Source: Escherichia phage ph0011. From it: a stretch of DNA of 64,000 bases. A program made the translations under genes and the position numbers. Below are positions 14 through 15,366 of the stretch, piece by piece; position 1 is the stretch's first letter, and every line of letters starts with the position of its first letter. Under the pieces are notes generated by a model. That model worked only from the letters and a program-made list of their open reading frames with translations, was not told the DNA's origin and ran no database searches. Location: sequence record OP557969.1. One strand, given 5' to 3'.

Positions 14-625
14 TTGACAAATACAAATACTAATACATACTTTAGATATCTTCGCCTTGGTCTTTCCCTACGTCCTATTCGTGGTAAGTGTGATTCGCTT
101 ACAGATCTTGATTATGCATATGCATTACATCATGAAGGTGTACAGTATGTATTAGGTGATTATGGCGAATTTGAAGAAACAAATGACAGTACTGCTATTA
201 ATGCAGGTGTTGAAAATCTTAACAACATTGCTAATAGTTCTCGTCATGATATTGTGTTACAAATCCAGAACTTTATTGAACAACACACAGGTAAACGTGT
301 TTGGTGCTATGTAGGCACTGATGCACAAATGTCAATTTCCTTCGGGAACGATGAAGGATATGTTGCACAGCTTATTATGGATTTTGAATCTGAAGAGAAG
401 TTTTTAGAATTTAAAGAGAAAATCATCCAGTCACTCGTTGATATGGGTATCCCAGAAGATAAAATGCCAGAAGTTCAAAACATCGATGAATTTGTTTTGA
501 TTCCATCTGATGAAAAGTATGATGCAATGTTTACTGCTCTTAATATTCCCGGAGTTATTGTGGAGTACTTTGATGATGGTGATGATAGTATCTATATCGA
601 CCTAGATGATGATGATGATGAATAA
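14..625 (+). CDS. hypothetical protein with poly-acidic C-terminus (DLDDDDDE); TTG start after AAGGAG
   Basis: ORF track; SD-like aaggag at 1-6; hairpin terminator immediately downstream. Confidence 0.5.
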   Translation: MTNTNTNTYFRYLRLGLSLRPIRGKCDSLTDLDYAYALHHEGVQYVLGDYGEFEETNDSTAINAGVENLNNIANSSRHDIVLQIQNFIEQHTGKRVWCYVGTDAQMSISFGNDEGYVAQLIMDFESEEKFLEFKEKIIQSLVDMGIPEDKMPEVQNIDEFVLIPSDEKYDAMFTALNIPGVIVEYFDDGDDSIYIDLDDDDDE

Positions 626-632
626 TGCAAAC

Positions 633-659
633 AGCCCGACATAAGTTCGGGCTATTTTT
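633..659 (+). terminator. rho-independent terminator
   Basis: stem agcccga/tcgggct (633-639/647-653) followed by TTTTT. Confidence 0.6.
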
Positions 660-671
660 GTAAGGAAAAAT

Positions 672-941
672 ATGAATTACAAAAATATACAATTCACTTA
701 TATGGAATTATTTAAATTACACCATAAAAACAGAAGTTCTAACACAATTATTAAAAATGCGTTTACCCATAAACTATGGACAAATTACCTAGAAGAATTG
801 CGTGAATATTTTGTTGATACTGAAATTTTCATTGGTGGTAAAAAACGAAAAATACTTAGAGTCGATAGTTTTGGTGGTCGATTAGTTCTTTCATATAAAC
901 TTAATAACGATCTATGTTCTGTGAATTTGGTAGATTTATGA
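672..941 (+). CDS. small protein, member 1 of tandem NDIQFTY paralogue family
   Basis: N-terminal MNYKNIQFTY and C-terminal GGRLVLSY..VNLVDL shared with neighbours; stop overlaps next start (ATGA). Confidence 0.55.
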   Translation: MNYKNIQFTYMELFKLHHKNRSSNTIIKNAFTHKLWTNYLEELREYFVDTEIFIGGKKRKILRVDSFGGRLVLSYKLNNDLCSVNLVDL

Positions 942-1198
942 ATTATAAAGATTTCCAATTTACATTCAAATATATTCGTAGTATAGCAGATAAAAATAAT
1001 AGTGTGTTTTTAGAAGACACATGTTCTGAAATGATTAATACTGTTCGTGATAGGATTAAAGAAAAATTCAGTACTGTTATTATTAACGATGAACATGCAG
1101 AATTTTCAGATATAATAATTCGACGAGATGGTAAAGTTGAGGTTCAGTACTACACTGATTTTGGATTTACCAGTGTTACGTTGGAGATATTCCCTTGA
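938..1198 (+). CDS. small protein, member 2 of NDIQFTY paralogue family
   Basis: MNYKDFQFTF N-terminus; start moved to ATG 938 overlapping upstream stop. Confidence 0.55.
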   Translation: MNYKDFQFTFKYIRSIADKNNSVFLEDTCSEMINTVRDRIKEKFSTVIINDEHAEFSDIIIRRDGKVEVQYYTDFGFTSVTLEIFP

Positions 1199-1506
1199 GA
1201 TTAAATTTAAATGATATTCAATTTACATATAAAAATATATACGATTTGTATGATATGTATCTTTTTAGTGGGAAGATTGGTAACCATACTGAATCAAAAG
1301 AATCACCATTTATCCAAAATTACTTTGATTACTTAGATGCAGTTGGTGAATATATAAAAAAGAATTACAGTACTTACACTGATGGAGATGATATGTTTGA
1401 ATATTCAGGTATAAAATCTTATCAAGGAATTATCCATGTTGAGTTTCTTGAAAAAACTGATAGGGAGTTTATAGAGATCAAAGTGATGAAGTTAACGGAC
1501 CTGTAA
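1195..1506 (+). CDS. small protein, member 3 of NDIQFTY paralogue family
   Basis: LNLNDIQFTY motif; TTG start overlapping previous stop. Confidence 0.5.
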   Translation: MRLNLNDIQFTYKNIYDLYDMYLFSGKIGNHTESKESPFIQNYFDYLDAVGEYIKKNYSTYTDGDDMFEYSGIKSYQGIIHVEFLEKTDREFIEIKVMKLTDL

Positions 1507-1516
1507 GGATTGACAT

Positions 1517-1807
1517 ATGATTCTTAATGATATACAATTCACATATAGAGTTTTATACATGGAGTACTCTCATACTGATCCTAAAGACTATCACTATTAT
1601 GAAACCTTTCGAACGATATGGATTGAATTTTTAGATGAATTAAAAGCGTATTACGGTAGTGTTCGTATTGTTCGTGATGGTAGAATTTACACTTGTAAAG
1701 ATGTTGTCAGTCATAGTGGTAAGCTACGATTAGAATTATATACAGAAGGACATGGTTGGATTGGTGTAAATTTACTGGATTTAGATAATGAAACACAACT
1801 TAAATGA
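1517..1807 (+). CDS. small protein, member 4 of NDIQFTY paralogue family
   Basis: MILNDIQFTY motif; C-terminal GVNLLDL like other members. Confidence 0.55.
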   Translation: MILNDIQFTYRVLYMEYSHTDPKDYHYYETFRTIWIEFLDELKAYYGSVRIVRDGRIYTCKDVVSHSGKLRLELYTEGHGWIGVNLLDLDNETQLK

Positions 1808-2066
1808 CATACAAGTGTTCTATAGCTTCGTATATGAATCTTATGCATCAGAAGGTTACTATGAAAGTGTGTATTATTTTTTATGGCAACAATACCGTAC
1901 TATAGTACGAGATTTATATATAGGAAAATATATAACATACTGTGATAGTAGAATGATGTGCACAGATGTTCTTAGTTATCATGGTAGGTTGGTATTCCAG
2001 TTCGAAGACAGTGAAGGTAGTATGTCTTTAAATGTAAGAGATTTAAAAGGAGTGCATTTTGAATAA
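1788..2066 (+). CDS. small protein, member 5 of NDIQFTY paralogue family
   Basis: MKHNLNDIQVFY motif; C-terminal SLNVRDL. Confidence 0.55.
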   Translation: MKHNLNDIQVFYSFVYESYASEGYYESVYYFLWQQYRTIVRDLYIGKYITYCDSRMMCTDVLSYHGRLVFQFEDSEGSMSLNVRDLKGVHFE

Positions 2067-2259
2067 GTGTCCATATTGTAACAGTACTCAATTAGCTCGT
2101 TTCCGTTTAGATTCAGACTGGGCCACTGGTGCTGGTGATTTCTTTCCTATCAATGATGATGCAGAATATACAGAAGAACAGCACAAAGATTTTGATAAAT
2201 CATGGCGACCTGACATTGAGTGCATTTATTGTCTTAATTGTGAGCGTATACATGACTAA
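2059..2259 (+). CDS. small zinc-ribbon protein
   Basis: CPYCNS ... CIYCLNC paired CxxC motifs. Confidence 0.5.
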   Translation: MNKCPYCNSTQLARFRLDSDWATGAGDFFPINDDAEYTEEQHKDFDKSWRPDIECIYCLNCERIHD

Positions 2260-2515
2260 AGCTGAACTGATCGTACAAACACTGCGTTTATTGAGGGATT
2301 TAGATATCCCACGCATGGATGTGAAACTTGAAGATATCTACATTGAATCTCTTAGTGAAGATTACACCGATACCGTAATGATGCTGAATGACGTGCTTTA
2401 TCGTATAGATAGCATCAGTCGTCTTGGAAGTACTTTAAAAGTGAATATGGAAAGAGTTGATAAACTTTATGTACATATATATAGTCTACCTATTTCAATA
2501 TTAAACTATAGATGA
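2252..2515 (+). CDS. hypothetical protein
   Basis: ATG 2252 overlaps upstream stop; ORF track 2129 start is probably an upstream extension. Confidence 0.45.
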   Translation: MTKAELIVQTLRLLRDLDIPRMDVKLEDIYIESLSEDYTDTVMMLNDVLYRIDSISRLGSTLKVNMERVDKLYVHIYSLPISILNYR

Positions 2516-2802
2516 ATATTATATTGATACAAAAAACATATGCGTTATTGATGAAAGAATATACTAATACTTATGATGAAAAGTGCAGTGCAAATCATAA
2601 TATGTATAAATTCATTACCCAAGAGTACAGGGATTATATATATGCTGCGTTAGTGGGTAGATATTTCAGTACTAAAAAACGTAAAGAACTCAAAGTTGTA
2701 GATATTACTTTTTTCTACAACGGGCATATAACAATTCATGGTGTTGAACATAATTCACAAATATATCGTAACTATTCATTCAATGAGGTAACAATTATAT
2801 GA
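2512..2802 (+). CDS. small protein, divergent member of NDIQFTY family
   Basis: N-terminal LIQKTY resembles IQFTY motif; start/stop overlap. Confidence 0.5.
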   Translation: MNIILIQKTYALLMKEYTNTYDEKCSANHNMYKFITQEYRDYIYAALVGRYFSTKKRKELKVVDITFFYNGHITIHGVEHNSQIYRNYSFNEVTII

Positions 2803-2981
2803 GAGTAGTATTTTTTATCTGGAGTCTTTTCTCACTAGCAGTACTGACAGTTTCAGGTGCTTATTCTTTTTTAACAATGAACACATGGTATGTTAATTTA
2901 CTATTCCCAATTGTTGGTGTCGGTTTAGGATTTACTTTACATAGTGTATGTAAGGATTACAATGACAAATACAACAAATGA
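2799..2981 (+). CDS. small membrane protein
   Basis: two hydrophobic segments (FIWSLFSLAVLTV, LLFPIVGVGLGF). Confidence 0.45.
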   Translation: MRVVFFIWSLFSLAVLTVSGAYSFLTMNTWYVNLLFPIVGVGLGFTLHSVCKDYNDKYNK

Positions 2982-3240
2982 AGTTCTTATTGCTGAAACA
3001 ATGAATATGATTTATTTTATTACTACGGCACAGGATTTGTCTTATCCAGTGAAATCGTTACTTAGGTCAATGTATATTGATATTGTAAAAGAATATTATA
3101 AATCTAAACACAGAAGTATTATTAGTGTTTATCGTGATTATGAAAGGATTCGTATTTTATTCTGGAACAAGAACCGAGTTCGTGAGGAATGTGATCTAGT
3201 AGATTTTAAATTAGAGAATCTTTATTGTTACAAAATTTAA
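2962..3240 (+). CDS. hypothetical small protein (possible divergent NDIQFTY-family member)
   Basis: ATG 2962 after aagga; C-terminal CDLVDFKL resembles family C-termini. Confidence 0.45.
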   Translation: MTNTTNEVLIAETMNMIYFITTAQDLSYPVKSLLRSMYIDIVKEYYKSKHRSIISVYRDYERIRILFWNKNRVREECDLVDFKLENLYCYKI

Positions 3241-3296
3241 AAGATGATAAATATTTTACAAAAGAATGTTTTTTTAGAAAAAAAAGGATTTTGTAA

Positions 3297-4781
3297 ATGA
3301 AAGTATGTACGAATTTAAATGTTACTGGTGATATAACGTCTAATGGGATGACGTTAAGCAAGAATCATAATTATGAGAATTTTAGTGACCTACAAGAAAG
3401 ATGTACTAAAATGCTTTTACAATTTGATAAACCTGAAGTATACGATCCTGATATTACTATTACAATAACTACTAAAAATGTAAATTATACATATAAAGGA
3501 CCAATTGATGGTATGTGTGATATAGAAAATCCTTCATTGTATAAAATTTCCATGTATGTATACACTGACAAAGAGTATTTTATAAACGATGTACAATTAT
3601 CAGATGATGGTAGTTTTCATTTTTCTAAAACGAATAATGGCTCAAAACAATTTAGACTAATTAGAATATCTGATAATAAATGGATTGATACATTAGAATA
3701 TGCATTATTGACTAGAAGTTATATAATACCAGAAACTGAAGATTCGCAAGTTAGAAATACAATGAAAGATCGTTGTTACACATATGATCAAGCGGCAGTT
3801 GCTATTGCATTAATGGTACAAAACCACCCAGAGATGGATAGATATGTATATGGTTTGTGTCAATTGGTTGAGGAAAATGGTGGAATAAAATTTTTTGTTA
3901 ATAGGATATCGGCATTTTCCAATAGAGCATACTATAGAATGGGTAATGCTGCATGGGTATTATATGGATTAGCTTTTTACTTATGGAAATTCCCAGATGG
4001 GGTATATGCGAATTTGGCCCGTGAAAAACTTTTGTTAGGGTTAGAATGGGTATCAACTTTTAAAGTAACTACACCCGGTGATAAAAGAGAAGGTTTATAT
4101 ATGGGTGGAAAAGGAAAATTTATCAATAATGGTTCTCAATTTGACCCGAATTACATTGCTAGTTGGTGTGCAATGGAACACAATTTAGATCTTTGGTTTT
4201 TATTTGATCTATGCTCTGTTATTGGAATTCAGAATTATGATACAATAGCAAAGGAATTACATAATAATATAAATGATAAATTGTGGATAGAAAGTGAAGG
4301 ACGTTTTCGTCAAGGTGTACATGAAACAACAGATGATAATGCTGCTGCATTAGATCAATCATCATGGGGTGGTTTGTATTCTTTATATGCAGATGGTAAT
4401 GATACAAAAGCAGTAAAATGTCACAAATATATGGAACGTTTTATGTTTGGTACGTTGGAATGTGAGGGATATACGCCTTATAATAAATTATTTGGTTATC
4501 CAAATGCAGTACAAGGTGTATGGACTGAAGGAACTGCTGGTGTGGCTTTGTTTGAACGTGCATTGGGTAATGACAGAACTGCCGCAAAATTAATTGCTAA
4601 TTTGAAGCCTATATGTGACCCAGTTTATGGATATCGTGACTCATGTGATGACCCAGATTACGATGTTCTTCCAGATTGGCCTTCCTCGTGTAATACAGCA
4701 TGGATTATTCTGGCTATTAACCCACAAGGTTTCTGGAAAGTTGAAGCCCCACTGATGGATATTGGGCTTGTGAAATATTAA
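3297..4781 (+). CDS. hypothetical 494-aa protein; aromatic-rich helical core loosely reminiscent of (alpha/alpha)6 glycosidase-like folds
   Basis: long ORF; segments WVLYGLAFYLW, SWCAMEHNLDLWFLF, GVWTEGTAGVALF; fold assignment is inference only. Confidence 0.6.
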   Translation: MKVCTNLNVTGDITSNGMTLSKNHNYENFSDLQERCTKMLLQFDKPEVYDPDITITITTKNVNYTYKGPIDGMCDIENPSLYKISMYVYTDKEYFINDVQLSDDGSFHFSKTNNGSKQFRLIRISDNKWIDTLEYALLTRSYIIPETEDSQVRNTMKDRCYTYDQAAVAIALMVQNHPEMDRYVYGLCQLVEENGGIKFFVNRISAFSNRAYYRMGNAAWVLYGLAFYLWKFPDGVYANLAREKLLLGLEWVSTFKVTTPGDKREGLYMGGKGKFINNGSQFDPNYIASWCAMEHNLDLWFLFDLCSVIGIQNYDTIAKELHNNINDKLWIESEGRFRQGVHETTDDNAAALDQSSWGGLYSLYADGNDTKAVKCHKYMERFMFGTLECEGYTPYNKLFGYPNAVQGVWTEGTAGVALFERALGNDRTAAKLIANLKPICDPVYGYRDSCDDPDYDVLPDWPSSCNTAWIILAINPQGFWKVEAPLMDIGLVKY

Positions 4782-4854: not shown

Positions 4855-4894
4855 ATTGGATAAGGAACAATAACTAACACAAGGAGTGTGGAAA

Positions 4895-5623
4895 GTGCTT
4901 GACCGTATCCGTTTTGCCACAGAGATGGCGAATGAATTAAACATGGCAAATTTTCAAATGTTAACATCAGTGATGGCTGAACATGCATGTGCTTATTCTG
5001 TAAGTGGTGTGCAGTGTGGTCAGGAGAATATGTTAGCAGATGTATATAGCGAAGTTCAAAGTAAACAATACAGTGTAAAGACGTACAAGGATAAGTTCGT
5101 TAGTCTTTATATGAATGAAGACATTTCAGAAGACCGCAAATATACTGATTTTATTATTGAACGAAGAGTATCAGGTGTATCTAATCCTAACGCACCAAGT
5201 GATGAAGTTTTTTCAGAAGTACTGAAAGATATATACGAAAATGAATTGAAAAGTAAGAATCATTACAATGTACGTGAAACTAACACTGTGCTCTTGGGAT
5301 ATGATGAAGACGATCAATATTATTATTTCCGTATGACAGAAGTCCCTTTTGAATACAAATCACCAAGTACTACTGCTGTAAAAGAATTTACCGAGAAAAG
5401 CAAGAACTACAAGAAACATGAAGGCAACCGTTGTAGTATAAATGGTTATAATGAAGATGGTGTTCATATATATGAATGGGTTCATCCTAATTGCCAGACA
5501 TATACCCGTTGCTTGAAGAAACGTTATAATTTAGAAGACAATGAATCCTTCTACTTTAAAGTTAAGAAACAAAGCTATACTCGCCCTGAAGATTCAGAAT
5601 TGATGGGTATGGTATATTTCTAA
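4895..5623 (+). CDS. hypothetical protein
   Basis: ORF track (4886 GTG); second in-frame GTG at 4895 has better spacing to AAGGAG. Confidence 0.55.
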   Translation: MLDRIRFATEMANELNMANFQMLTSVMAEHACAYSVSGVQCGQENMLADVYSEVQSKQYSVKTYKDKFVSLYMNEDISEDRKYTDFIIERRVSGVSNPNAPSDEVFSEVLKDIYENELKSKNHYNVRETNTVLLGYDEDDQYYYFRMTEVPFEYKSPSTTAVKEFTEKSKNYKKHEGNRCSINGYNEDGVHIYEWVHPNCQTYTRCLKKRYNLEDNESFYFKVKKQSYTRPEDSELMGMVYF

Positions 5624-5632
5624 GGAACTGTT

Positions 5633-5914
5633 ATGGATTTTTACCTACACACATGGTCATACGAACAATACATTACATTATATCTTGAGATTATTAATAC
5701 TGATCCCAGATATGGTTGTGATTTTGCTGATATTATAAAAGAGTATGCAGATGAGTTTGAGTTTGTATATCTTGGCTCTGACCTATTCGTGAAGAGTGTA
5801 GGTAAAACCGGACGCATCACTGAGATTGATTATGATACTGTTAGTGTGAATTTCTATGTTGATTTTCCTTGTGATGGCGTTGATGGTGTATATTGTCTAT
5901 ATGAAATAATTTAA
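5633..5914 (+). CDS. hypothetical small protein
   Basis: ORF track; terminator downstream. Confidence 0.5.
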   Translation: MDFYLHTWSYEQYITLYLEIINTDPRYGCDFADIIKEYADEFEFVYLGSDLFVKSVGKTGRITEIDYDTVSVNFYVDFPCDGVDGVYCLYEII

Positions 5915-6844: not shown

Positions 6845-7530
6845 TTAAAGATTTAGATAGAATTTTATATGTACTAAGGGGTGTGATTACATTGCATCCA
6901 CAGATTAATCGCATGGAGCGTGTATTTGAATTAAAATCAATAGAAACTCCATATTCACATATATCAAATGTAGTTGGATCATTCAGTACTGAAGACTCTC
7001 CATATGATATTTGTGTATGTGAAGTACAACCAAGTTCGGATATTGGATTTGCTATTTTTGATAAAAATCGAAATCTTATTAGTATGTTTCAGTGCAATAA
7101 TCCTTTTTGGAAAACATGCCTGTATCCAGAGTGGGCTATGCTTGATCCAACAAAGAGTAACATTAAAGTGTACGACTCTAAAAACAAAGAAGTCGTTATT
7201 GATTTGGATGAGTCAATGACTGAGGAAGAACACTTTCAGTTAATGATGTTGCGAGCTATGCCTGAATACAATGCAATGATTAACACTGTGAAATATATTA
7301 ATGATACTATGCAATCATTGCGTACACATGAGTTTTGTCATCCAGTATTGTATGAAAATTTAGATTTAGACTTCAGTACTATTAAATTTAAAGATAATGT
7401 TGTAAATTACATTCAAGAGAATGTTAAATTTGATTTTATTAATACTATGAATAATAATCCAAAAACAAATTTCAGGCATCAGTATAATGAATCGCTCTCT
7501 AATGGACGCGATACCAGTTGGTGGAAATAA
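6841..7530 (+). CDS. hypothetical protein
   Basis: ORF track; start overlaps upstream stop. Confidence 0.55.
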   Translation: MIKDLDRILYVLRGVITLHPQINRMERVFELKSIETPYSHISNVVGSFSTEDSPYDICVCEVQPSSDIGFAIFDKNRNLISMFQCNNPFWKTCLYPEWAMLDPTKSNIKVYDSKNKEVVIDLDESMTEEEHFQLMMLRAMPEYNAMINTVKYINDTMQSLRTHEFCHPVLYENLDLDFSTIKFKDNVVNYIQENVKFDFINTMNNNPKTNFRHQYNESLSNGRDTSWWK

Positions 7531-7531
7531 T

Positions 7532-7795
7532 ATGAATATCCAAGATAGATTACAATTGTTGTGCACACTTGAACAAGCTGCTTATGAACTTGTTAATAAA
7601 ATCTCTGAAGAACTTCCCAAAGGAACTAGAGTTCGTGTTCGTGAAATGGATTATGTAACGGGTGAAATTGAAGAAAAAGTTTTAACAGTGGTTAAAGTAA
7701 CATACTATGAGTCAGAGCTATCAATTCAATGTAAGTCAGATAATGGTTACATTTCCTACTATGGCACTGATATAGAGATGGAGGTAATCAAATGA
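7532..7795 (+). CDS. hypothetical small protein (helix then K-G-x-x-V beta motif family)
   Basis: ATG 7532 directly after upstream stop; GGTGGA upstream. Confidence 0.5.
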   Translation: MNIQDRLQLLCTLEQAAYELVNKISEELPKGTRVRVREMDYVTGEIEEKVLTVVKVTYYESELSIQCKSDNGYISYYGTDIEMEVIK

Positions 7796-8934
7796 CCCTT
7801 TTACAAATATATGAAGATTTGATGCACTTATGTAATACCCGTGAGGCTTTCTTTTATGTAGATCATAAAAGTCCTGCTGGTGGCACATATCGTGTATTCA
7901 GTTATCGACTAGCATCATATACTGATTTCATGCAACCGAATGCATTGGAAACCCGTGGTTCTATGTGGGAAATCGATGACGATGGCAACATGATACGTTG
8001 TGCATCACGTTGTATGAAAAAGTTCTTTAATGCTTACGAAAATCCTGCTACGATGTTCCCTGCTGATACCAAATGTGATGACATTGCAGTAGTGATGCCT
8101 AAGTTGGATGGTTCAATTATCAGTTCTTACCGTGATAATGATGGTATTATTCGTTGTAAATCACATACCTCATTGTATTCTGACCATGCAATTAACAGTA
8201 CTCGACTAATTAACGAGAACCAGAATTTGTATCAGTACATTGATGAAGCTGAACGTTTGGGTTACACGGTTAACATGGAGTACACAAGCCCAGAGTACCG
8301 AATCGTATTGCCATATCAGGTAGAACAACTATTTGTTCTAAACGTCCGTCATCGTGTAAGTGGTGAATTGTTGTGTGGTAAAGCATTACGCGAAAAGTTT
8401 CCTTGTCTTTCACAGTACAGCACCAATATGACAGGTAAAGATATTCATCACACGTTTCCGGTAAGAAATACATTTCGTGAAAGTGTTGAAGAAGTTCATA
8501 AAATGCTTGATATTGAGGGTTTTGTTTGTATTCTAAAAGATGGGACAATGTGTAAAATAAAGACGGATTGGTATAGTTCATTACATCTAACAAAAGACAG
8601 TATCATTATTGATTCACATTTGTTCGAAGCTGTGTTAAATGGTTCAAGTGACGACTTGAAACAATTATTCAGTACTGACGAATATGCTATGCAAAAGATA
8701 TTGAGAATGGAACAATTGGTATTTTCGTGCTATAATTCATTACAAGATGAGGTAGAAAACTTCGTCAATACACACAAGCACTTGGGACGAAAGGAATTCG
8801 CAATGAAGGTTCAGGAGTGTTTGACTAATGAACTAAATCGTCAGGGCTTGGCCTTTGCAATGTATAACAATAAGTATGTTGATTATAAAGAAACTCTTAT
8901 CAAATACATGAAAGTAGTACTAAAGGACTTTTAG
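7792..8934 (+). CDS. rnlA: RNA ligase 1 (T4 RnlA/gp63-like)
   Basis: N-terminus REAFFYVDH..GGTYRVFSYRLASYTDF matches T4 Rnl1 (KFFYSDD..GRTYRIFSYNYASY); similar length (380 aa). Confidence 0.85.
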   Translation: MTLLQIYEDLMHLCNTREAFFYVDHKSPAGGTYRVFSYRLASYTDFMQPNALETRGSMWEIDDDGNMIRCASRCMKKFFNAYENPATMFPADTKCDDIAVVMPKLDGSIISSYRDNDGIIRCKSHTSLYSDHAINSTRLINENQNLYQYIDEAERLGYTVNMEYTSPEYRIVLPYQVEQLFVLNVRHRVSGELLCGKALREKFPCLSQYSTNMTGKDIHHTFPVRNTFRESVEEVHKMLDIEGFVCILKDGTMCKIKTDWYSSLHLTKDSIIIDSHLFEAVLNGSSDDLKQLFSTDEYAMQKILRMEQLVFSCYNSLQDEVENFVNTHKHLGRKEFAMKVQECLTNELNRQGLAFAMYNNKYVDYKETLIKYMKVVLKDF

Positions 8935-8963
8935 TATAATCTATAGCCTAAGCACAAGGAGAA

Positions 8964-9221
8964 GTGATGGCTAAACCTAAGTATAGAAATGACGGTTCCC
9001 TTTCTCCAACAGAGTTCAGGAAGATACAAGAAGAAATCGATACATTACAGCACAAACGCTCTAAGAAAGGTGTGAAGATTAGTAAGAAACGAATCGAGAA
9101 TACTTTCGGTTGTAGTAGTACTGAATATAAAAAGAAAAGGAAACCGAAAGATGTTAGACCGAGAATATATGATATTACTCGTTATACATCAAGACGTGAA
9201 AATAAGTTTGATCCACTATAA
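8964..9221 (+). CDS. small basic protein
   Basis: Lys/Arg-rich ORF. Confidence 0.45.
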   Translation: MMAKPKYRNDGSLSPTEFRKIQEEIDTLQHKRSKKGVKISKKRIENTFGCSSTEYKKKRKPKDVRPRIYDITRYTSRRENKFDPL

Positions 9222-9230
9222 GGAGTTCAT

Positions 9231-9461
9231 ATGAAAGTTGAAGTTCAGCATAGTATTGTTCAAGATATGTCGGTAGTGAAATTTCATTCTCTGAAAGATT
9301 ACTTCAGGTGTATCAAGTTTCTAGAAGAATCTCATTTACAGTGGACTCCATTGAAATACAGTTCATTTAATGATACAGCTAGTATTCGTTGTGATGAATC
9401 TGTACTTGTAAAAATTACAAAACGATTTGGGTTAGGTAAAATTAATGAGCACAGTAAATGA
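9231..9461 (+). CDS. hypothetical small protein
   Basis: ORF track. Confidence 0.45.
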   Translation: MKVEVQHSIVQDMSVVKFHSLKDYFRCIKFLEESHLQWTPLKYSSFNDTASIRCDESVLVKITKRFGLGKINEHSK

Positions 9462-9699
9462 CCTAAAATACTACAACCAAACTGCGGATACCTTTATTAC
9501 CCATTTATATGAAGAATTCAGTCGTATCCGCAATGAATATACTGGTAAATGTATTTTATATAGCTTTTATCATAGTGGTGAAATTGAACTTGCTTACATT
9601 ACTAAAGTGAAGTTTTCAGATGACTATCAATTACTCTTTGAATTAGACAATAGTTTCGTTATTGAAGCTAATTTGATAGTTGATGTACTAGATAAGTGA
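9445..9699 (+). CDS. hypothetical small protein
   Basis: ORF track. Confidence 0.45.
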   Translation: MSTVNDLKYYNQTADTFITHLYEEFSRIRNEYTGKCILYSFYHSGEIELAYITKVKFSDDYQLLFELDNSFVIEANLIVDVLDK

Positions 9700-9705
9700 G
9701 GACAC

Positions 9706-10020
9706 ATGAATAAAGAACTTGCTCAAAAAGGCATTGATCAGTTAAAGTACATTGAAAAGGAACTAATAGAATCAGTTGAATTAATGGTCGAAGATTTCGT
9801 GTTTGATTTTAAGAAAACATTGATTGGATGTAAAGTCAAATGCTGGGACCATACTATCAGGGAATGGTTTAGTACTATAATCCTTGATGTTAAAGTATCG
9901 CGTACTGCTTTTGGTAACTTAGTAAATGGTGAATGCTTTGTATACACTGAATACAATAACGGAACAAGACACCTTTCAAAAGGATGGCACAGACTCGAAG
10001 ATGTAGAATTCATTGAGTAG
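9706..10020 (+). CDS. hypothetical small protein
   Basis: ORF track. Confidence 0.45.
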   Translation: MNKELAQKGIDQLKYIEKELIESVELMVEDFVFDFKKTLIGCKVKCWDHTIREWFSTIILDVKVSRTAFGNLVNGECFVYTEYNNGTRHLSKGWHRLEDVEFIE

Positions 10021-10032
10021 TAAGGAGTAATA

Positions 10033-10965
10033 ATGCCGACTATCACACTAACAGTTGGTTTACCTGGATGTGGTAAAACAACATGGGCAGTACAAGAGAT
10101 TAAAAAAGCCAAATCCAAGACTATCAATATCAACCGTGATGATATTCGTGAATCGATGGCTGGGTCACATGATGCTTACAAATTCAATGATGCTAATGAG
10201 AAGTACGTAACTAATTTACAGTTCAGTGCAGCAAAATTAGCAGCAGAGAATGGTTGGAATATTATTGTATCCGACACAAACCTTAAACCACATTTCCGTG
10301 AACAATGGAAAATGTGGGCTAAAGATAATGGTTATGATTATAAAGAAAAGAACTTCTATGATGATTTTGTACCAAAGGAAGACCGTGGTGCAGATGTTCA
10401 TGAATTCTTTAAGATTAAAGAGTTTGTAAAACTTTGTAAGAAATATAACCTCCAGCGTGAGCGTTCAGTACAAGATAATATCATTGACACAATGGCAGAT
10501 ACGTACTATTATAGTAAGGCATTGCATATTGGTTACTATGGTAATTCTCGTGAAGAAGCGATTATCGTTGATATCGATGGAACTCTTGCTCATAAATGGA
10601 ACCGCAATCCATTTGATGAAAGTACAGTTCTCCAAGATACACCAGACGAAGAAGTTATTTTGTCTGTTATCGCCGAAGCAGTTTTTCATAAACGCAAGAT
10701 TATTGTCATGAGTGGTCGTACTGAAGGGTGTCGTGCTGACACAGAACAGTGGTTGAAGAATTGGGGTGTTCCCTACGATGCATTGTTTATGCGAGGCATT
10801 GATGATAAACGTCCCGATGATGTTGTTAAATTCGACCTGTACATGAAAAATGTGGTTGATCATTACGATGTTAAAAAAGTATATGATGACAGAGCACAAG
10901 TCGTATTCATGTGGCGTAAACTACTTGGATTGAAAGTGATGCAAGTTGCGGAAGGAAATTTTTAG
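10033..10965 (+). CDS. pseT: polynucleotide 5'-kinase/3'-phosphatase (T4 PseT-like)
   Basis: P-loop GLPGCGKTTWA, NINRDD, HAD-type IIVDIDGTLA phosphatase motif; colinear with T4 Pnk. Confidence 0.85.
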   Translation: MPTITLTVGLPGCGKTTWAVQEIKKAKSKTININRDDIRESMAGSHDAYKFNDANEKYVTNLQFSAAKLAAENGWNIIVSDTNLKPHFREQWKMWAKDNGYDYKEKNFYDDFVPKEDRGADVHEFFKIKEFVKLCKKYNLQRERSVQDNIIDTMADTYYYSKALHIGYYGNSREEAIIVDIDGTLAHKWNRNPFDESTVLQDTPDEEVILSVIAEAVFHKRKIIVMSGRTEGCRADTEQWLKNWGVPYDALFMRGIDDKRPDDVVKFDLYMKNVVDHYDVKKVYDDRAQVVFMWRKLLGLKVMQVAEGNF

Positions 10966-10971
10966 TACAAA

Positions 10972-11000
10972 AAGGGATCAGTATATGATCCCTTTTTCTT
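10972..11000 (+). terminator. rho-independent terminator
   Basis: stem agggatca/tgatccct followed by TTTTTCTT. Confidence 0.65.
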
Positions 11001-11191
11001 TTAAGGTACATTATAGTGAATGTAACAACACAAATGTTATTACGAAAAGATTATTTAGAAAATATAGAAAGATTCTATAGAATGTCTTTGTATGAAAATA
11101 AGCATAAAAATTATAATTTTGATAAACTGCTAAATTCCAGTACTGATGATTATTTATTTTCATCAATGTTTTATGTGAGAGGATTATTGTA

Positions 11192-11452
11192 ATGGATAAA
11201 TTTCATACAGATATAACACAGATAGGTAACCTTATCAATAGTCTAATTACTGATTTAGAAGAAAAGTACTTAGGGCGAAATGTATACGTAGAAATGTATG
11301 AAACATATGGTGTTATTGATATGATTTATTATAGTGCATTGAAATATGAAATACGTTTAACTGTATGTTTATATGAAAAAGGTACATTTAAAAGAAGTTC
11401 TGCAATCCGTCAAGTCGGAGTTGACGACATTGAATTATACGAGGAACAATGA
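11192..11452 (+). CDS. hypothetical small protein (helix then K-Y-x-G-x-x-V family)
   Basis: ORF track; EEKYLGRNVYVEMY motif. Confidence 0.5.
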   Translation: MDKFHTDITQIGNLINSLITDLEEKYLGRNVYVEMYETYGVIDMIYYSALKYEIRLTVCLYEKGTFKRSSAIRQVGVDDIELYEEQ

Positions 11453-11703
11453 TGTTTGAGCAGGACTTAGAGCTATTCAAAAGTTATATTGAGTACTTAG
11501 TTACTTTAGAAAAAGAGCTAACTGCAAAGTACAAGGGTGTTCGTGTTCAGTGCTGGTATGACGATTGTGATTATAAACGTGAACTTATTATTGACCGAAT
11601 ATATTTCATCGATGGTGTATTGAATGTACATGGTGTTAATGATTTTGGACATTCATATACTTATTCAAATAATGCAAAATTCAAGAGGATTGACAATGAA
11701 TGA
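11449..11703 (+). CDS. hypothetical small protein (same loose family)
   Basis: TAKYKGVRVQCWY motif; coupled start. Confidence 0.5.
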   Translation: MMFEQDLELFKSYIEYLVTLEKELTAKYKGVRVQCWYDDCDYKRELIIDRIYFIDGVLNVHGVNDFGHSYTYSNNAKFKRIDNE

Positions 11704-11998
11704 GTATTATCAAAATTTATTCAAATACATAAAACTAATAGATGATCTTGCTTTTGATTTTCTTAGTACTGATAAAGTTGATGAGCCTTTATATTATGAT
11801 TGTATTGGTTCACTTTGTTCATATGAAAAAGAAATATTAGAAAACAATTTACCATCAACGCTCTGTATTATCAATGGTTCTAAAGCGGTGGTGGTAGATG
11901 TTAATTTTTATAAATCACTTAATACAATTGTTTACAAGTTTGATAACACTGGGTTTAATCATATAACAGGTAATATTAAATCTGTGAGGTTCTTATGA
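11696..11998 (+). CDS. hypothetical small protein
   Basis: ATG 11696 overlaps upstream stop (ATGAATGA); ORF-track 11624 start is probably an extension. Confidence 0.45.
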   Translation: MNEYYQNLFKYIKLIDDLAFDFLSTDKVDEPLYYDCIGSLCSYEKEILENNLPSTLCIINGSKAVVVDVNFYKSLNTIVYKFDNTGFNHITGNIKSVRFL

Positions 11999-12291
11999 AT
12001 TTAAAACATTTGTTAGAACAGGCTCATTTATTGTATAGCTGTGCTGATGGTTCTGGTAAGGAGTATAGTGAAGTTTATTTAGAACTGTTTAGAACGGAAA
12101 TACACATAATTAGAAGATACTTAATTGATAATAAAACTGAAGTAAAAGTTAGATACCATAATGGTACTTTAAAGAATGGTATAATTATTGGATTGATAGT
12201 TTCACGAATGTCTAGTAATATTAAAGTTGCAATTAGATTAATGACTGATGATGGTGTCTACACCATAGAAGTAAGTGAGATTATATATTAA
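11995..12291 (+). CDS. hypothetical small protein
   Basis: ORF track; coupled start. Confidence 0.5.
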   Translation: MNLKHLLEQAHLLYSCADGSGKEYSEVYLELFRTEIHIIRRYLIDNKTEVKVRYHNGTLKNGIIIGLIVSRMSSNIKVAIRLMTDDGVYTIEVSEIIY

Positions 12292-12597
12292 ATGGATATA
12301 CAAACATTCAATAAACTTAAGTACTACGACAATGGTTTTACTATTATTATTAATGAACTGGATGGGATACCATATGAGTATCATAATGGTGTAATGAAAA
12401 TATTAAAAAGTATTTGTGATGATTTAAAAACTATATTTGAAAATGAATATGTTTACGACTTAGGCATAAACAATAAAAAATTATACATAAAGAAATTCAG
12501 TGGGACGCATTGTGGGCTGATGGTTAATTTGGGTTTATGTGCTGACAATAATTTTGAAGCATGTAGTTTATATCTGGATGAAATGCGAATCTCATGA
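12292..12597 (+). CDS. hypothetical small protein
   Basis: ATG immediately after upstream TAA. Confidence 0.5.
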   Translation: MDIQTFNKLKYYDNGFTIIINELDGIPYEYHNGVMKILKSICDDLKTIFENEYVYDLGINNKKLYIKKFSGTHCGLMVNLGLCADNNFEACSLYLDEMRIS

Positions 12598-12614
12598 GAC
12601 ATATCTTGAATCGG

Positions 12615-12623
12615 TGATATAAT
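12615..12623 (+). promoter_or_regulatory. extended -10 promoter element TGATATAAT
   Basis: exact 9-mer in intergenic gap upstream of 12656 gene. Confidence 0.4.
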
Positions 12624-12655
12624 TTCATTACAACACTGACAATGGAGTAGATGTT

Positions 12656-12985
12656 GTGGATGACGATTTTTTTAAAACGTTGGATAAAACGATAGTTATT
12701 CTATCTAGTTCATTAATGCACATTTTCAGTACTGATAATTCTTATAGTTCACATACATTTGATTTAATATGTAATAACTATGTAAATGGTATATCAGATG
12801 ATTTATGTCCATTTATTGCATATTTACTCGATGATAGTGAAGAATTTAATATATGCAACATTAGTTGTGGATTTGGTGATTGGATTGTGTTAAATGAACG
12901 TGGTGGGATCTGTTTATACACCGAAGATATTGGTAAATTTATATATAAAGGAGTAGAATATGTTAACAATCGCAGCAGTTATTAG
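12656..12985 (+). CDS. hypothetical protein (GTG start)
   Basis: GGAG 8 nt upstream of GTG. Confidence 0.45.
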   Translation: MDDDFFKTLDKTIVILSSSLMHIFSTDNSYSSHTFDLICNNYVNGISDDLCPFIAYLLDDSEEFNICNISCGFGDWIVLNERGGICLYTEDIGKFIYKGVEYVNNRSSY

Positions 12986-13550
12986 TGTACTAGGCGTAGC
13001 CATTACAGGTATGCTTGCTTACAATTACAACCGTAGTGTTATCGGTTATGTACTACTTAGTCTAGTACTAACACCAGTACTAGCCATCGTTACTTTATTA
13101 GTATTAGGTGAACGTAAAATCAACTTCATTATTAATGATAAACGTGATCAAGTTACACCCGAACCCGAAAAAGTTATCAATGAAGAACGAGAAGAGCAAA
13201 AAGTTGAAGTTCAAATGAAAGTGAATGTTCACAACGCACTTGATGAAACTGACCCTAAAGTTAATATTACTGTTGTTCCTAAAGTCAATGAAGTAAAGCC
13301 TAAAACAGCAACAAAAAGTTCTAAATCAAAGAAAAGCACCAAGACCACAAAGAAAGCTCGCAACACAAAAGGTAAGAATAAAAACAAAGTTCAAGATGAA
13401 CCACAACAAGACACACATGATCATACTTCCCATATTATTACAGCAGCTACAACCGCAGCAGTTGTGACACCATATATCTCTTCTGCTGATACTGGTTCAT
13501 ATGATAGCTCTAGCTGTGATTCAAACACTAGTTCTGGAAGCGGTGATTAA
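12960..13550 (+). CDS. membrane-anchored protein with Lys-rich low-complexity region
   Basis: two N-terminal hydrophobic helices; KTATKSSKSKKSTKTTKKARNTKGKNKNK tract. Confidence 0.55.
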   Translation: MLTIAAVISVLGVAITGMLAYNYNRSVIGYVLLSLVLTPVLAIVTLLVLGERKINFIINDKRDQVTPEPEKVINEEREEQKVEVQMKVNVHNALDETDPKVNITVVPKVNEVKPKTATKSSKSKKSTKTTKKARNTKGKNKNKVQDEPQQDTHDHTSHIITAATTAAVVTPYISSADTGSYDSSSCDSNTSSGSGD

Positions 13551-13552
13551 CA

Positions 13553-13885
13553 ATGAAACATCTTGTACAATATAATCAGTACTTGATTTCATTACACAAA
13601 ATGAAAGATGATTTCTTTAGAAGTGCTGAGATTGAACTCGTTGGTAAGATAGTAAAATTTACTGACGAGTATATCAAAAGATACACTGACATAGATGATG
13701 ACCCAGAGTATGAATCATACTACCAGTACATAAATCAATATACTAGAATGCGAATTGTTGGAATTTTAAAATTCGGTATACGATTAGTTGCACATGTGGA
13801 ATTCATCAATTACGAAGCAATTGATGCAGCAGCCTTTGGGGATGAAATTAGTTTAGATCATCTTATACTAGTTGATGAGGAATAA
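13553..13885 (+). CDS. hypothetical protein
   Basis: ORF track. Confidence 0.5.
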   Translation: MKHLVQYNQYLISLHKMKDDFFRSAEIELVGKIVKFTDEYIKRYTDIDDDPEYESYYQYINQYTRMRIVGILKFGIRLVAHVEFINYEAIDAAAFGDEISLDHLILVDEE

Positions 13886-13887
13886 TA

Positions 13888-14103
13888 ATGATTACATTTT
13901 TTGCAATATATGGGTTTGTTGCGTTTTGTTCATTTATATGTAACTTTCTAGTACTAAATTGGAATTGTTTCAAAGATGAAATCATAACTGCAATGAGTCT
14001 GCAATCAGCAGCACTAATGGCTATAATTTGGCCTGTAACTATGGTGTATCTTTTTATCTCAATAATAAAAGATATCACATCCCACTTCAAGAGAAAGAAA
14101 TAA
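13888..14103 (+). CDS. small membrane protein
   Basis: hydrophobic throughout (FFAIYGFVAFCSFICNFLVL). Confidence 0.45.
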   Translation: MITFFAIYGFVAFCSFICNFLVLNWNCFKDEIITAMSLQSAALMAIIWPVTMVYLFISIIKDITSHFKRKK

Positions 14104-14354
14104 TGTTTAACACAGACTATTCACATTTACGATATCTTATGTCTTTGGCTGATGATTTTATTAATGATTTGAAGCCTAAGTATATTGGACAGGAAGTAAG
14201 TTTGATAAACTCTAGGGGTTATGGAAAGTACATTATTACTGATATGTATATTAGCGGTGGAGAATGGCGTTTCAAAGTTAATACGTATCTTAAAGATGGT
14301 TCTTTTGCAGGTACACAAGTTACAAAACACACTAACATTATATGGTTGAAATAA
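14103..14354 (+). CDS. hypothetical small protein (K-Y-I-G-x-x-V family)
   Basis: ATG 14103 overlaps upstream TAA; LKPKYIGQEVSL motif. Confidence 0.5.
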   Translation: MFNTDYSHLRYLMSLADDFINDLKPKYIGQEVSLINSRGYGKYIITDMYISGGEWRFKVNTYLKDGSFAGTQVTKHTNIIWLK

Positions 14355-14356
14355 TA

Positions 14357-15100
14357 ATGAAACATTTCTTAGAAGTTACAGTACCGGATGATAAAGATTT
14401 ATATATTGTTGGTGATTTACATGGTAATGGAAAACTGTGGGACGCGACTAAGAAAGAGTTCGGTGTCACCAACGAAGATTACGTGTTTTCTGTTGGTGAT
14501 GTTATTGACCGTGGTGACCAGAACTCTAAGCTTCTATTTGAATTCCTTTTCGGTGAAAACCGTTTTATGATTACTGGGAACCACGAGATGATGTGTGTTG
14601 ATTCTGAAACTCATCGTGACTGGTATCACTGTTGGGTCCAAAATGGTGGAGATAAGTTCATTGATGAAGTTGGGGTAACAGGCATTCAATTCTTTCGTCA
14701 GTACTTAAATGATCTCCCTATGATTATCCAAATCAATCACCGAGGATTGAAGATTGGGTTAGTTCATGCAGGTGTTCCATTGGAATATACAACATGGGAA
14801 CGTTTCGTTAATGGGACAAAATCACTTAGTGCTGATATAATTGAGAAGTGCTTGTGGGAACGTGATACATTTGACTACTGCAAGAAAAATAACACATATT
14901 ACGCCCCTAGACTTGATGGTATCCATTGCGTATTTAGTGGTCATACCGCAGTATCTGACCCACTCATTTATGGTAATCGTATTTGGATTGATAGTCAGTT
15001 TTTAACAGGTGATTTGACTCTTGCAACTCCACAAAGCGGTGGGATGAGATACTTACGTAAAGAAAAAGATGAGTACTCATTCAATCGTTTCAAAAGGTAA
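14357..15100 (+). CDS. Ser/Thr protein phosphatase-type metallophosphoesterase
   Basis: GDLHG, GDVIDRGD, GNHE calcineurin-like metal-binding motifs. Confidence 0.75.
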   Translation: MKHFLEVTVPDDKDLYIVGDLHGNGKLWDATKKEFGVTNEDYVFSVGDVIDRGDQNSKLLFEFLFGENRFMITGNHEMMCVDSETHRDWYHCWVQNGGDKFIDEVGVTGIQFFRQYLNDLPMIIQINHRGLKIGLVHAGVPLEYTTWERFVNGTKSLSADIIEKCLWERDTFDYCKKNNTYYAPRLDGIHCVFSGHTAVSDPLIYGNRIWIDSQFLTGDLTLATPQSGGMRYLRKEKDEYSFNRFKR

Positions 15101-15105
15101 TAATT

Positions 15106-15366
15106 ATGCATGACGTAATTAAAAAATACTTAAATGATAGATATGTCCTGACAAAATCTATTAATTCTATACTAAAAGACCATGCTAATCAAATACATGA
15201 GATTCTATCCGAGAAACTTATTGGTTGTTCAGTTGAATTTGACTACAAAAAGAATATCGGAGTTATTCGACGTGTAGTTGATGTTTATGAACAAAATGTA
15301 TATGTTGAAATTGTATATGATGGTAAATTATTACAACTAAGTACTGAAGATTTGACATTTTTATAA
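15106..15366 (+). CDS. hypothetical small protein
   Basis: ORF track. Confidence 0.5.
   Translation: MHDVIKKYLNDRYVLTKSINSILKDHANQIHEILSEKLIGCSVEFDYKKNIGVIRRVVDVYEQNVYVEIVYDGKLLQLSTEDLTFL

Follow-up and report, generated by a model that had tools for sequence, protein, structure and literature searches.

Clusters of small, fast-evolving accessory genes that serve host takeover or counter-defence are found in T4-like and other lytic phages. Tandem arrays of more than 30 genes have been reported in 121Q and phage G, in both of which genome expansion has been proposed to proceed by tandem duplication (PMC5646251). The majority of jumbo-phage genes lack annotation, phAPEC6 being an example in which 83% of the proteins have no known function (PMC7247149). 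Here we describe an array of seven small paralogues from an Asteriusvirus genome (121Q/PBECO4-like E. coli jumbo phage). The window, that is, the whole stretch of DNA that was analysed, is 64 kb long and ORFs are named by their start coordinate in it. Seven family members and one Zn-ribbon gene make up the block 672-2802 (Table 1). The six ORFs from which the initial annotation proposed the array (672, 938, 1195, 1517, 1788 and 2512) and ORF 2962, its possible further copy, all lie on the + strand at the coordinates it had given, and the stop/start overlaps were found as ATGA at 938, 2512 and 2799, as TTGA at 1195 and as stretches of 20 nt at 1788 and 2962. The start at 938 is backed by both the motif alignment and the 121Q annotation. 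The genes are not strictly consecutive as had been described, since the Zn-ribbon gene and ORF 2252-2515 separate 1788 from 2512.

Table 1. Location of the array members, their neighbours and other features of the window discussed in the text.
Feature	Coordinates	Strand	Description
Left flank of variable slot	14..625	+	203 aa, poly-Asp tail, phrog_15575
Intrinsic-terminator-like hairpin	633..653	+	AGCCCGA...TCGGGCT then T run, 18 nt upstream of member 1
Family member 1	672..941	+	89 aa, MNYKNIQFTY..., pI 9.5
Family member 2	938..1198	+	86 aa, MNYKDFQFTF..., start overlaps stop of member 1 (ATGA)
Family member 3	1195..1506	+	103 aa, TTG start overlapping stop of member 2
Family member 4	1517..1807	+	96 aa, MILNDIQFTY..., copy chosen for AlphaFold2 model
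Family member 5	1788..2066	+	92 aa, MKHNLNDIQVFY..., 20-nt overlap with member 4
Zn-ribbon protein	2059..2259	+	66 aa, CxxC...CxxC, non-member, always inside array
Family member 6	2252..2515	+	87 aa, MTKAELIV...
Family member 7	2512..2802	+	96 aa, MNIILIQKTY..., pI 8.9
Small hydrophobic (membrane-like) protein	2799..2981	+	60 aa, GRAVY +0.70, translationally coupled within block
Non-assigned ORF	2962..3240	+	92 aa, same secondary-structure order as family
Right flank of variable slot	4886..5623	+	245 aa, phrog_16105
Candidate distant relative	5633..5914	+	93 aa, acidic

The paralogues share only 17-30% pairwise identity and some pairs score weakly in single BLASTP comparisons, as would be expected if there were no real family and the shared motifs had arisen by chance from the composition of an AT-rich genome. 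Translated in six frames, the whole 64 kb contains 8 instances of a loose form of the N-terminal NDIQFTY motif, [IFLV]Q[FVKL][TF][YF] (codon-shuffled windows average 4.3 over the same length), and 6 of the 8 occurrences lie at the same place, 5-7 codons into ORFs 672, 938, 1195, 1517, 1788 and 2512. When searched against a database of 837 local ORFs, every member finds other members as its best non-self matches, for instance ORF 1517 from ORF 672 (phmmer 2e-5) and from ORF 1788 (7e-6). The family HMM itself scores ORF 672 at 1e-31. The alignment and HMM building that the initial annotation had proposed as a check gave significant homology: the iterative HMM search, run with reversed and shuffled decoys, converged on 69 sequences with zero decoys, and ORF 2512 was recruited in it at E<1e-3. 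Profiles of orthologues were also compared by hhalign, in which the orthologue group of 672/1517/1788 (the 672-group) matched 1195 at 1e-11, 938 at 1.5e-8 and ORF 2512 at 7.8e-6 over 79 columns. The 938 and 1195 profiles matched each other at 2e-7, and values among the five core ORFs (672, 938, 1195, 1517 and 1788) ranged from 1e-11 to 2e-6. Reciprocal best hits, decoy-controlled HMMs and profile-profile E-values of 1e-11 to 8e-6 thus make the six ORFs true paralogues. Compositional chance is refuted by the same HMM and hhalign results, because decoys of identical composition were never recruited and reversed decoys in hhalign gave E-values of at least 0.19. Together with the constant codon offset of the motif and a confidently predicted common fold (see below), this leaves the chance reading a negligible probability.

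ORF 2252-2515 is an additional member that was absent from the original list. Its N-terminal motif is lost, but it has kept helix 2, the strands and the S-x-x-G turn; hhalign places it with the full family at 5.7e-5 over 43 columns (its own reversed decoy, 0.72), and an HMM iteration seeded by it recovers 61 family members and 0 decoys. ORF 2962, put forward as a possible seventh copy, is not supported by sequence, as its hhalign E-value is 0.063 and decoys come first in a search with its own profile. Predicted architecture supports it only loosely: AlphaFold2 models it (pLDDT 81) with two helices and three strands, in the same order as in the family; a Foldseek search with this model returned no family match, and the family model reached the 121Q orthologue of ORF 2962 at only TM 0.40 (E 0.047). 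A faint link exists from ORF 2962 to RaK2 ORF453 (1.1e-3). For ORF 2799-2981, which has orthologues in 9 of the 10 relatives compared, profile comparison showed no similarity to the family.

No family in Pfam or NCBIfam reaches its curated cut-off for any member, and none of them has a significant match in PADLOC or in a sequence-profile search of the PDB. Sub-threshold matches were rejected as noise, among them PF25742 (Phage_Gene33) for ORF 2512 (E 0.007, 17.1 bits against 27, with weak matches in 3 of 37 members) and frataxin (E 0.23). An exhaustive HMM search of 1.84 billion (1.84e9) representative proteins returned only 19 hits, of which about 17 clusters at 50% identity are real family hits, all of ~90 aa and with no domain fusions seen. 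The two long proteins P0045 and P0046 (adhesin-like repeat protein) were set aside, as their 5-10 short matches to the beta-hairpin region are repeat-inflated chance. All clusters with a traced source are Asteriusvirus-like, Klebsiella phage RaK2 has faint relatives of the family, and an IMG/VR search for related loci with a 10-sequence alignment found only 121Q itself. The same proteins are held in PHROGs 21004, 32291, 35943, 28826 and weakly 33961, which the window members match at 1e-24 to 1e-45 (ORF 672 to phrog_32291 at 5.5e-28, with a further match to phrog_21004 at 6.5e-7, ORF 1195 to phrog_21004 at 1.9e-36, ORF 938 to phrog_35943). These PHROGs also cross-match each other. They are kept there as separate families without function, whereas here they form one family that includes ORF 2252-2515 and has a fold model. 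The family is not described in the publications that we searched.

Structure prediction, also suggested in the initial annotation, was done for ORF 1517. The AlphaFold2 model (pLDDT 92.1, pTM 0.79) has helices at 3-19 and 25-46 followed by strands at 50-95, giving a predicted fold in which a helical hairpin packs onto a small SH3/Tudor-like beta-barrel. Judging from the alignment, the remaining copies would share this fold, with ORF 1195 carrying a ~10-aa insertion in the inter-helix loop, and Foldseek aligned the ORF 1517 model with a 96-aa slurp01 protein of the ORF 2512 type at TM 0.79. None of the solved structures matches the whole fold; the matches that were found cover half of the model only, with modest scores, and SH3-like barrels and helical hairpins are generic. 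The copies are cytoplasmic, soluble proteins of ~90 aa each. The hydrophobic core, the helix-start motif and one turn glycine are conserved in the family and no polar catalytic residue is; the charge varies from acidic to basic and indels sit in loops. Therefore these are probable non-enzymatic binding modules.

For the evolutionary comparison ten Asteriusvirus relatives were used. Checking related phages, as had been advised, revealed that copy number and alleles differ between close phages. Family orthologues are 55-60% identical at the protein level in most relatives (range 29-94%) as against ~73-98% for the flanking genes, and dN/dS is 0.2-0.7 as against 0.02-0.16 in the flanks. The array thus evolves much faster than its neighbours, but the diversifying selection suggested in the initial annotation is not supported: purifying selection is still detectable across the family, and gene-wide dN/dS, which stays below 1 everywhere, gives no support for positive selection. 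Nor is the recent expansion that had been supposed supported. The only repeat left at the DNA level is the 5′ motif region, and in most of the ten relatives the majority of copies are matched by an orthologue at the corresponding position, with A4 and JNE01/Turkey5 carrying different copy types. Given this synteny and the low identity among paralogues, the duplications, as judged from sequence comparison, are old, much of the genus having diversified after them.

The array nevertheless differs from phage to phage. Upstream of the Zn-ribbon gene there are 3 copies in JNE01/Turkey5, 5 in the window, 121Q and A4, and 1 in a metagenomic lineage that has at least 3 firm copies downstream (up to 5 at weaker E-values). 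ORF 1517 is 94% identical to its counterpart in WPEC5 and 42-62% to those in the nine other relatives. In none of the ten relatives is the orthologue more than 59% identical to the ORF 1788 allele, yet a core of ~80 nt (1858-1935) is near-identical in 3 of 4 aligned relatives (121Q, A4 and UE-S1). A chimeric copy exists in Salmonella phage SD-6_S16, and in some genomes copies are lost, truncated or fused. This variation in copy number and position, together with chimeric and mosaic alleles, reveals a family whose evolution proceeds through birth-and-death and allele exchange.

Array and Zn-ribbon gene occupy a variable slot between two genes that are conserved in the RaK2-like clade. On the left, ORF 14 has homologues in the same position in Asteriusvirus, in RaK2/K64-1 (60% identity), in Salmonella phage 7t3 (45%) and in GAP32, CBB and Serratia phage BF (~29%), with dN/dS of 0.02-0.11 in 9 of 10 comparisons. 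On the right, ORF 4886 is 85-97% identical in all relatives, and genes of ~243 aa, matched by size and position, bound the slot at the syntenic position in RaK2, 7t3 and GAP32. In 7t3 and GAP32 the slot is without the family altogether. Most Asteriusvirus relatives have a Zn-ribbon protein of 98% identity (JNE01/Turkey5, 86%); its dN/dS is 0.02 in most comparisons, and in RaK2 it lies between distant relatives of the family. The Lar restriction-alleviation Zn-ribbon likewise has ~60 aa and two CxxC pairs; an assignment to PF14354 (Lar_restr_allev) was rejected, the score being 12.4 bits (E 0.19) where the cut-off is 28.6. Neighbouring genes include a Dam methylase and a cytidyltransferase upstream, and RnlA and a polynucleotide kinase downstream. 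From these neighbours the array may be placed in an early region, as the initial annotation had supposed.

We also looked for regulatory signals. The stem of the hairpin upstream of member 1 is kept, with a variable loop, in 8 of 8 aligned lineages, which include the divergent A4, JNE01 and a metagenomic contig. Sigma-70-like promoters were not enriched: the scan gave 29 hits where 38 were expected. Rfam and tRNA scans of the window returned nothing, and therefore there is no sign of an RNA element in the conserved 5′ DNA motif. Synonymous differences inside this motif (ATA/ATT, TTC/TTT) point instead to constraint at the protein level.

To rationalize these results, we consider that the proteins are most likely accessory host-interaction factors acting as non-enzymatic binding modules, each copy of which would display a different surface to a different target. 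The orthologues in phAPEC6 (gp384c and gp386c-389c) are absent from its 62-protein virion proteome (Table 1 of PMC7247149), although small proteins can escape mass spectrometry. This non-virion status and the accessory, fast-turnover genetics make host macromolecules the likeliest targets, so that the copies would most likely act in takeover or counter-defence rather than on structural partners of the phage. The explanation as a whole, i.e. seven orphan paralogues in a birth-and-death slot that would serve as binding modules against host targets, is held with moderate confidence. Against it stands the conserved terminator-like hairpin directly upstream, which leaves no room for a promoter; information on transcript timing for Asteriusvirus was not found in the literature searched.

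Genes under weak constraint that serve the phage itself could likewise show rapid evolution and turnover of copies. The copies could then be small adaptors or chaperones, or regulators acting in replication, nucleotide metabolism or gene expression, perhaps working with the Zn-ribbon protein, which is always co-located, RaK2 included. Such a role gains from the position of the array amid DNA/RNA-metabolism genes and from the purifying selection, but internal partners usually co-evolve slowly, and here an orthologue difference of ~40% stands beside the far better conserved flanks, copy number and allele type vary freely, and 7t3 and GAP32 do without the family. We therefore regard this reading as unlikely. 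That the copies are largely dispensable duplicates with little specific function, tolerated or even favoured as extra DNA by headful packaging, would agree with the tandem duplication proposed for 121Q and phage G (PMC5646251) and with the loss, truncation or fusion of some copies. Neutral copies of such age should have decayed, however, and what is seen are intact reading frames, dN/dS of 0.1-0.7, below 1, in comparisons whose dS extends from below 0.1 to saturation, synonymous differences within the conserved motif and synteny of most copies in most relatives examined, which makes this reading very improbable. A more specific proposal, drawn by analogy, is that the paralogues would retune the host RNA polymerase during infection, with the Tudor-like barrel docking on the beta-subunit lobe as do the C-terminal domain of UvrD/PcrA and the RNAP-interaction domains (RID) of Mfd and CarD. 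No Pfam or PDB sequence match links these domains to the family, and we find the proposal highly doubtful.

The array may also be the core of a larger, hyper-diverged superfamily of host-machinery binders (hairpin plus SH3/Tudor-like barrel, ~90-110 aa) that would occupy this region of the genome in RaK2-like phages, although we consider this distinctly unlikely. Its candidates may include ORFs 2962, 5633, 11995, 12656, 13553, 14028 and 15106 of the window and ORF453, 455 and 456 of RaK2. The profile of ORF 5633 reaches family members at 1.8e-4 to 1.6e-3, before any decoy, and matches a bridging metagenomic protein (L016_4200-4511) at 4.8e-6; this protein itself scores 1.2e-4 with the family HMM. 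The family was not reached by HMM iterations started from ORFs 2962, 11995, 14028 and 15106. If the superfamily were real, it would provide these phages with a varied set of proteins for docking on host machinery, e.g. on the RNAP beta lobe like the Tudor domains of UvrD, Mfd and CarD.

The array alone reveals no new mechanism. What is gained is that four to five PHROGs are merged into one defined family with a fold model, exact gene boundaries and corrected membership, and that screens for host takeover and counter-defence in therapeutic jumbo phages of E. coli gain a compact, testable candidate set. Like the accessory clusters of T4-like phages, the locus consists of small soluble proteins in tight operon-like packing, its content varies among close relatives and it adjoins rnlA/pseT-type genes; those clusters usually mix unrelated genes, whereas the present array is one paralogous family whose targets are only putative. 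The arrays of PMC5646251 are likewise tandem paralogues in the same phage group and were read as duplication, but the present array has 7 copies of 17-30% identity and ongoing allele exchange. As tandem arrays are common in large phages, the one in Asteriusvirus is no surprise and stands as a well-defined candidate for studies of host interaction.

The small (~90 aa) "NDIQFTY" proteins encoded at 672-2802, named here by ORF start, form a real family of seven that is old and diverging fast; a fold model has been defined for it, it is confined to one phage group, and it occupies an accessory slot. The ORFs named in the initial annotation are present as described, with ATGA stop/start overlaps at 938, 2512 and 2799, a TTG start within a TTGA overlap at ORF 1195, gene overlaps of 20 nt (at 1788 and 2962) and of 8 nt (at 2059 and 2252), and a 10-nt spacer carrying an AAGGA ribosome-binding site before ORF 1517. 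The shared N-terminal motif was also recovered; six-frame translation of the window yields 8 occurrences of its loose form, against a mean of 4.3 across the entire 64 kb in codon-shuffled sequence, and 6 of the 8 lie at codons 5-7 of ORFs 672, 938, 1195, 1517, 1788 and 2512. Paralogues share 17-30% pairwise identity, and for some pairs a single BLASTP comparison gives a weak E-value. On searching 837 local ORFs, the top non-self matches of each member were other members, and PHROG models match across different members. Using orthologues from ten related phages, the 672, 1517 and 1788 types fuse under single-linkage at E<1e-10, and hhalign of orthologue profiles gave 1e-11 for this 672-group against 1195, 1.5e-8 against 938 and 7.8e-6 (79 columns) against 2512, with 2e-7 for 938 against 1195. 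Reversed and shuffled decoys were added to double the database for an iterative HMM search, which converged on 69 sequences with 0 decoys included (best decoy E 0.04). Therefore motif sharing by chance or composition, raised initially as the alternative and checked here by alignment and HMM, is excluded by the reciprocal top matches, profile E-values and decoy-free convergence, i.e. by consistent single-sequence signal and strong profile scores, and the paralogy stands.

While ORFs 672, 938, 1195, 1517, 1788 and 2512 keep their place in the list of members, one member had been missed and one candidate fails sequence tests. On profile evidence the seventh member is ORF 2252-2515, between the Zn-ribbon gene (2059-2259) and ORF 2512, which was overlooked because its N-terminal motif is lost. 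Against the profile of the whole family it scores 5.7e-5, the match covering helix 2 and the first strands (reversed decoy 0.72), and HMM iteration from it alone gathers 61 family members and no decoys. The candidate, ORF 2962-3240, gave 0.063 by hhalign, and decoys come first with its profile. Its AlphaFold model (pLDDT 81) has the element order of the family, two helices then strands; Foldseek shows no link to the family, its own model retrieving only the 121Q orthologue of ORF 2962, to which the ORF 1517 model aligns with no more than TM 0.40 and E 0.047. A faint match to RaK2 ORF453 (1.1e-3) leaves these failed tests as they stand. ORF 5633-5914 is possibly a distant relative; a bridging metagenomic protein matches it at 4.8e-6 and the family HMM at 1.2e-4, and its profile matches the family directly at 1.8e-4 to 1.6e-3, before all decoys. 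It may be noted that a dozen ORFs further downstream (Table) have a similar layout, in which helices at the N-terminus precede (Y/L)xGxxV and strands. Several of them match the family weakly (hhalign E 1e-3 to 4e-2; reversed decoys all at least 0.19, Zn-ribbon and membrane controls at least 0.26). Taken together this excess over decoys suggests an architecture in common, homology being unproven by it, and HMM iterations seeded from these ORFs never reached the family. They may be a sign of a wider superfamily.

The duplications are old, since at the DNA level a repeat can now be made out only in the 5′ motif region, and in most of the relatives examined the majority of copies have an orthologue at the corresponding position; the recent expansion proposed initially is thus set aside. 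Copy turnover is ongoing despite this age. Upstream of the Zn ribbon there are three copies in JNE01 and Turkey5, five of differing types in A4, and one in a divergent metagenomic lineage that has at least three firm downstream copies (up to five at weaker E-values). Chimeric or truncated members were found in Salmonella phage SD-6_S16 (protein P0031) and SD-1_S14 (locus L005, 5825-5983); in P0031 the N-terminus is of the 938 type and the C-terminus of the 1195 type, which would fit unequal recombination of adjacent paralogues. DNA identity to relatives shifts abruptly from gene to gene, being against 121Q 92% in the left flank (14-625), 67, 84, 76, 74 and 73% in members 1-5, 96% in the Zn ribbon, 47% in ORF 2252 and 68% in ORF 2512. 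In member 5 (ORF 1788-2066) a ~80-nt core (1858-1935) is near-identical to 121Q, A4 and UE-S1, its own flanks being at 52-70%, and may reflect either mosaic recombination within the gene or constraint at the DNA/RNA level. A palindrome, CGTACTATAGTACG, is present at 1896-1909 within this core. Orthologue protein identity is mostly 55-60% for the members and roughly 73-98% for the flanking genes. Gene-wide dN/dS is 0.2-0.7 for members and 0.02-0.16 for flanks and Zn ribbon, and as it is <1 in every comparison, the earlier suggestion of diversifying selection is not borne out. The Zn ribbon is the best-conserved gene of the block (98% identity in most Asteriusvirus relatives, 86% in JNE01 and Turkey5), with dN/dS of 0.02 in most comparisons in sharp contrast to its fast-evolving neighbours, and is readily recognised in RaK2. 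Its resemblance to Lar is no more than sub-threshold.

Megablast places the window in Asteriusvirus (121Q/PBECO4-like jumbo myophages of E. coli and Salmonella, genomes ~350 kb), with 35 matching records, the closest being phage WPEC5 (92% identity across 72% of the first 6.5 kb). All genes of the array region are on the + strand. Its 121Q counterpart is genes 421-434, every one annotated hypothetical, with Dam methylase and cytidyltransferase upstream and RNA ligase RnlA and polynucleotide kinase downstream. The ligase, kinase and phosphatase genes give the neighbourhood a counter-defence and nucleic-acid-metabolism flavour; the ligase and kinase are a T4-like tRNA-repair pair. The left-flank gene is kept throughout RaK2-like genera (29-99% identity) and its protein has a poly-Asp/Glu C-terminal tail (DDDDDDE); its only PADLOC match, a weak one to Cas8c (E 0.003), is probably spurious.

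A word-indexed search found 35 relatives of the family among 5.8 billion proteins, and an exhaustive HMMER scan 19 matches at E<=1e-3 among 1.84 billion cluster representatives. All real HMMER matches are single-domain (52-103 aa), so no domain fusions point to function. Significant tblastn matches of ORF 1517 in 50,697 phage records are confined to Asteriusvirus. The slot itself, variable in content and bounded by the 14-625 homologue and the syntenic counterpart of 4886-5623, is present in RaK2, Salmonella phage 7t3 and GAP32. In RaK2 it holds the same Zn ribbon with small ORFs on either side whose matches to the family HMM are weak (2e-5, 2.3e-5 and 2e-3; hhalign up to 4.9e-5). In 7t3 and GAP32 the slot is filled instead by a ~205-aa protein with an H-D motif and a membrane protein. 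This "HDxxED" motif we read by eye as HD-hydrolase-like, and neither the protein nor the accompanying small membrane protein occupies the slot in any Asteriusvirus locus inspected.

The match between the fibre-like ORF after the array and its PHROGs is limited to their C-terminal ~480 residues. None of the 10 Asteriusvirus relatives fetched has this ORF at the same position, where EC.P1 carries another one (307 aa). Among phages it has a single close match, at 56% identity, to a tail protein from an Stx2k prophage. It thus resembles a fibre domain, receptor-binding or enzymatic, that was gained horizontally, lacks an N-terminal anchor and was inserted among non-structural genes. The inverted repeat before it might mark an insertion boundary or act as a hairpin signal.

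Table. Coordinates of features in and around the array and in related slots
Feature	Coordinates	Strand	Remarks
Terminator-like hairpin	633-653		18 nt upstream of first start codon
AT-rich inverted repeat (TTTACAAAAGAATGTTTTTT / AAAAAAAAGGATTTTGTAAA)	3255-3297		Exactly between ORF 2962 end and fibre-like ORF start
Fibre-like ORF, 494 aa	3297-4781	+	"tail fiber" PHROGs, phrog_13714, E 6e-184
A dozen further 85-110-aa ORFs	7487, 9445, 9706, 11192, 11449, ~11700-11998, 11995, 12292, 12656, 13553, ~14100-14354, 15106		Window 7487-15366
RnlA-type RNA ligase, polynucleotide kinase/phosphatase, Ser/Thr phosphatase	7792-8934, 10033-10965 and 14342-15100		Downstream of array
Conserved slot protein, 203-214 aa	RaK2 ORF457 (L019 7052-7669), 7t3 (L020 5621-6232), GAP32 (L021 5839-6483)		"HDxxED" motif; coordinates of each fetched locus

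The AlphaFold2 model of ORF 1517 (37-sequence alignment; pLDDT 92.1, pTM 0.79) has helices at 3-19 and 25-46 and then a beta part (residues 50-95), which we read as a helical hairpin packed against a predicted SH3/Tudor-like barrel; no full-length solved counterpart of this fold was found. Conservation across 55 non-redundant members is seen at an invariant beta-turn glycine (G68), at T9, Y10, Q7 and S65 and at core hydrophobic residues, but at no acidic, His or Cys position. The pI ranges from 4.7 up to 9.5, and indels lie in the inter-helix loop and one beta-hairpin loop. Such conservation, pI spread and loop indels are typical of a scaffold whose surfaces have diversified, and not of an enzyme. 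We infer that the members are non-enzymatic binding modules, whose targets would most probably be of the host. Docking on RNAP is an improbable role, the sole basis for it being a fold resemblance over half of the model. Phage-internal roles are possible, and the members may also be near-dispensable duplicates. The phAPEC6 orthologues are not in the published virion proteome. The hairpin before the first member is kept in all lineages aligned, with variable loops, a second terminator-like site is located after ORF 5633, and no promoter enrichment was seen. By analogy with T4, delayed-early, read-through expression would be our guess.

Tandem gene arrays are known in jumbo phages, 121Q included (PMC5646251). 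The present array is the same familiar kind of feature and adds another example to these rather than a new kind.
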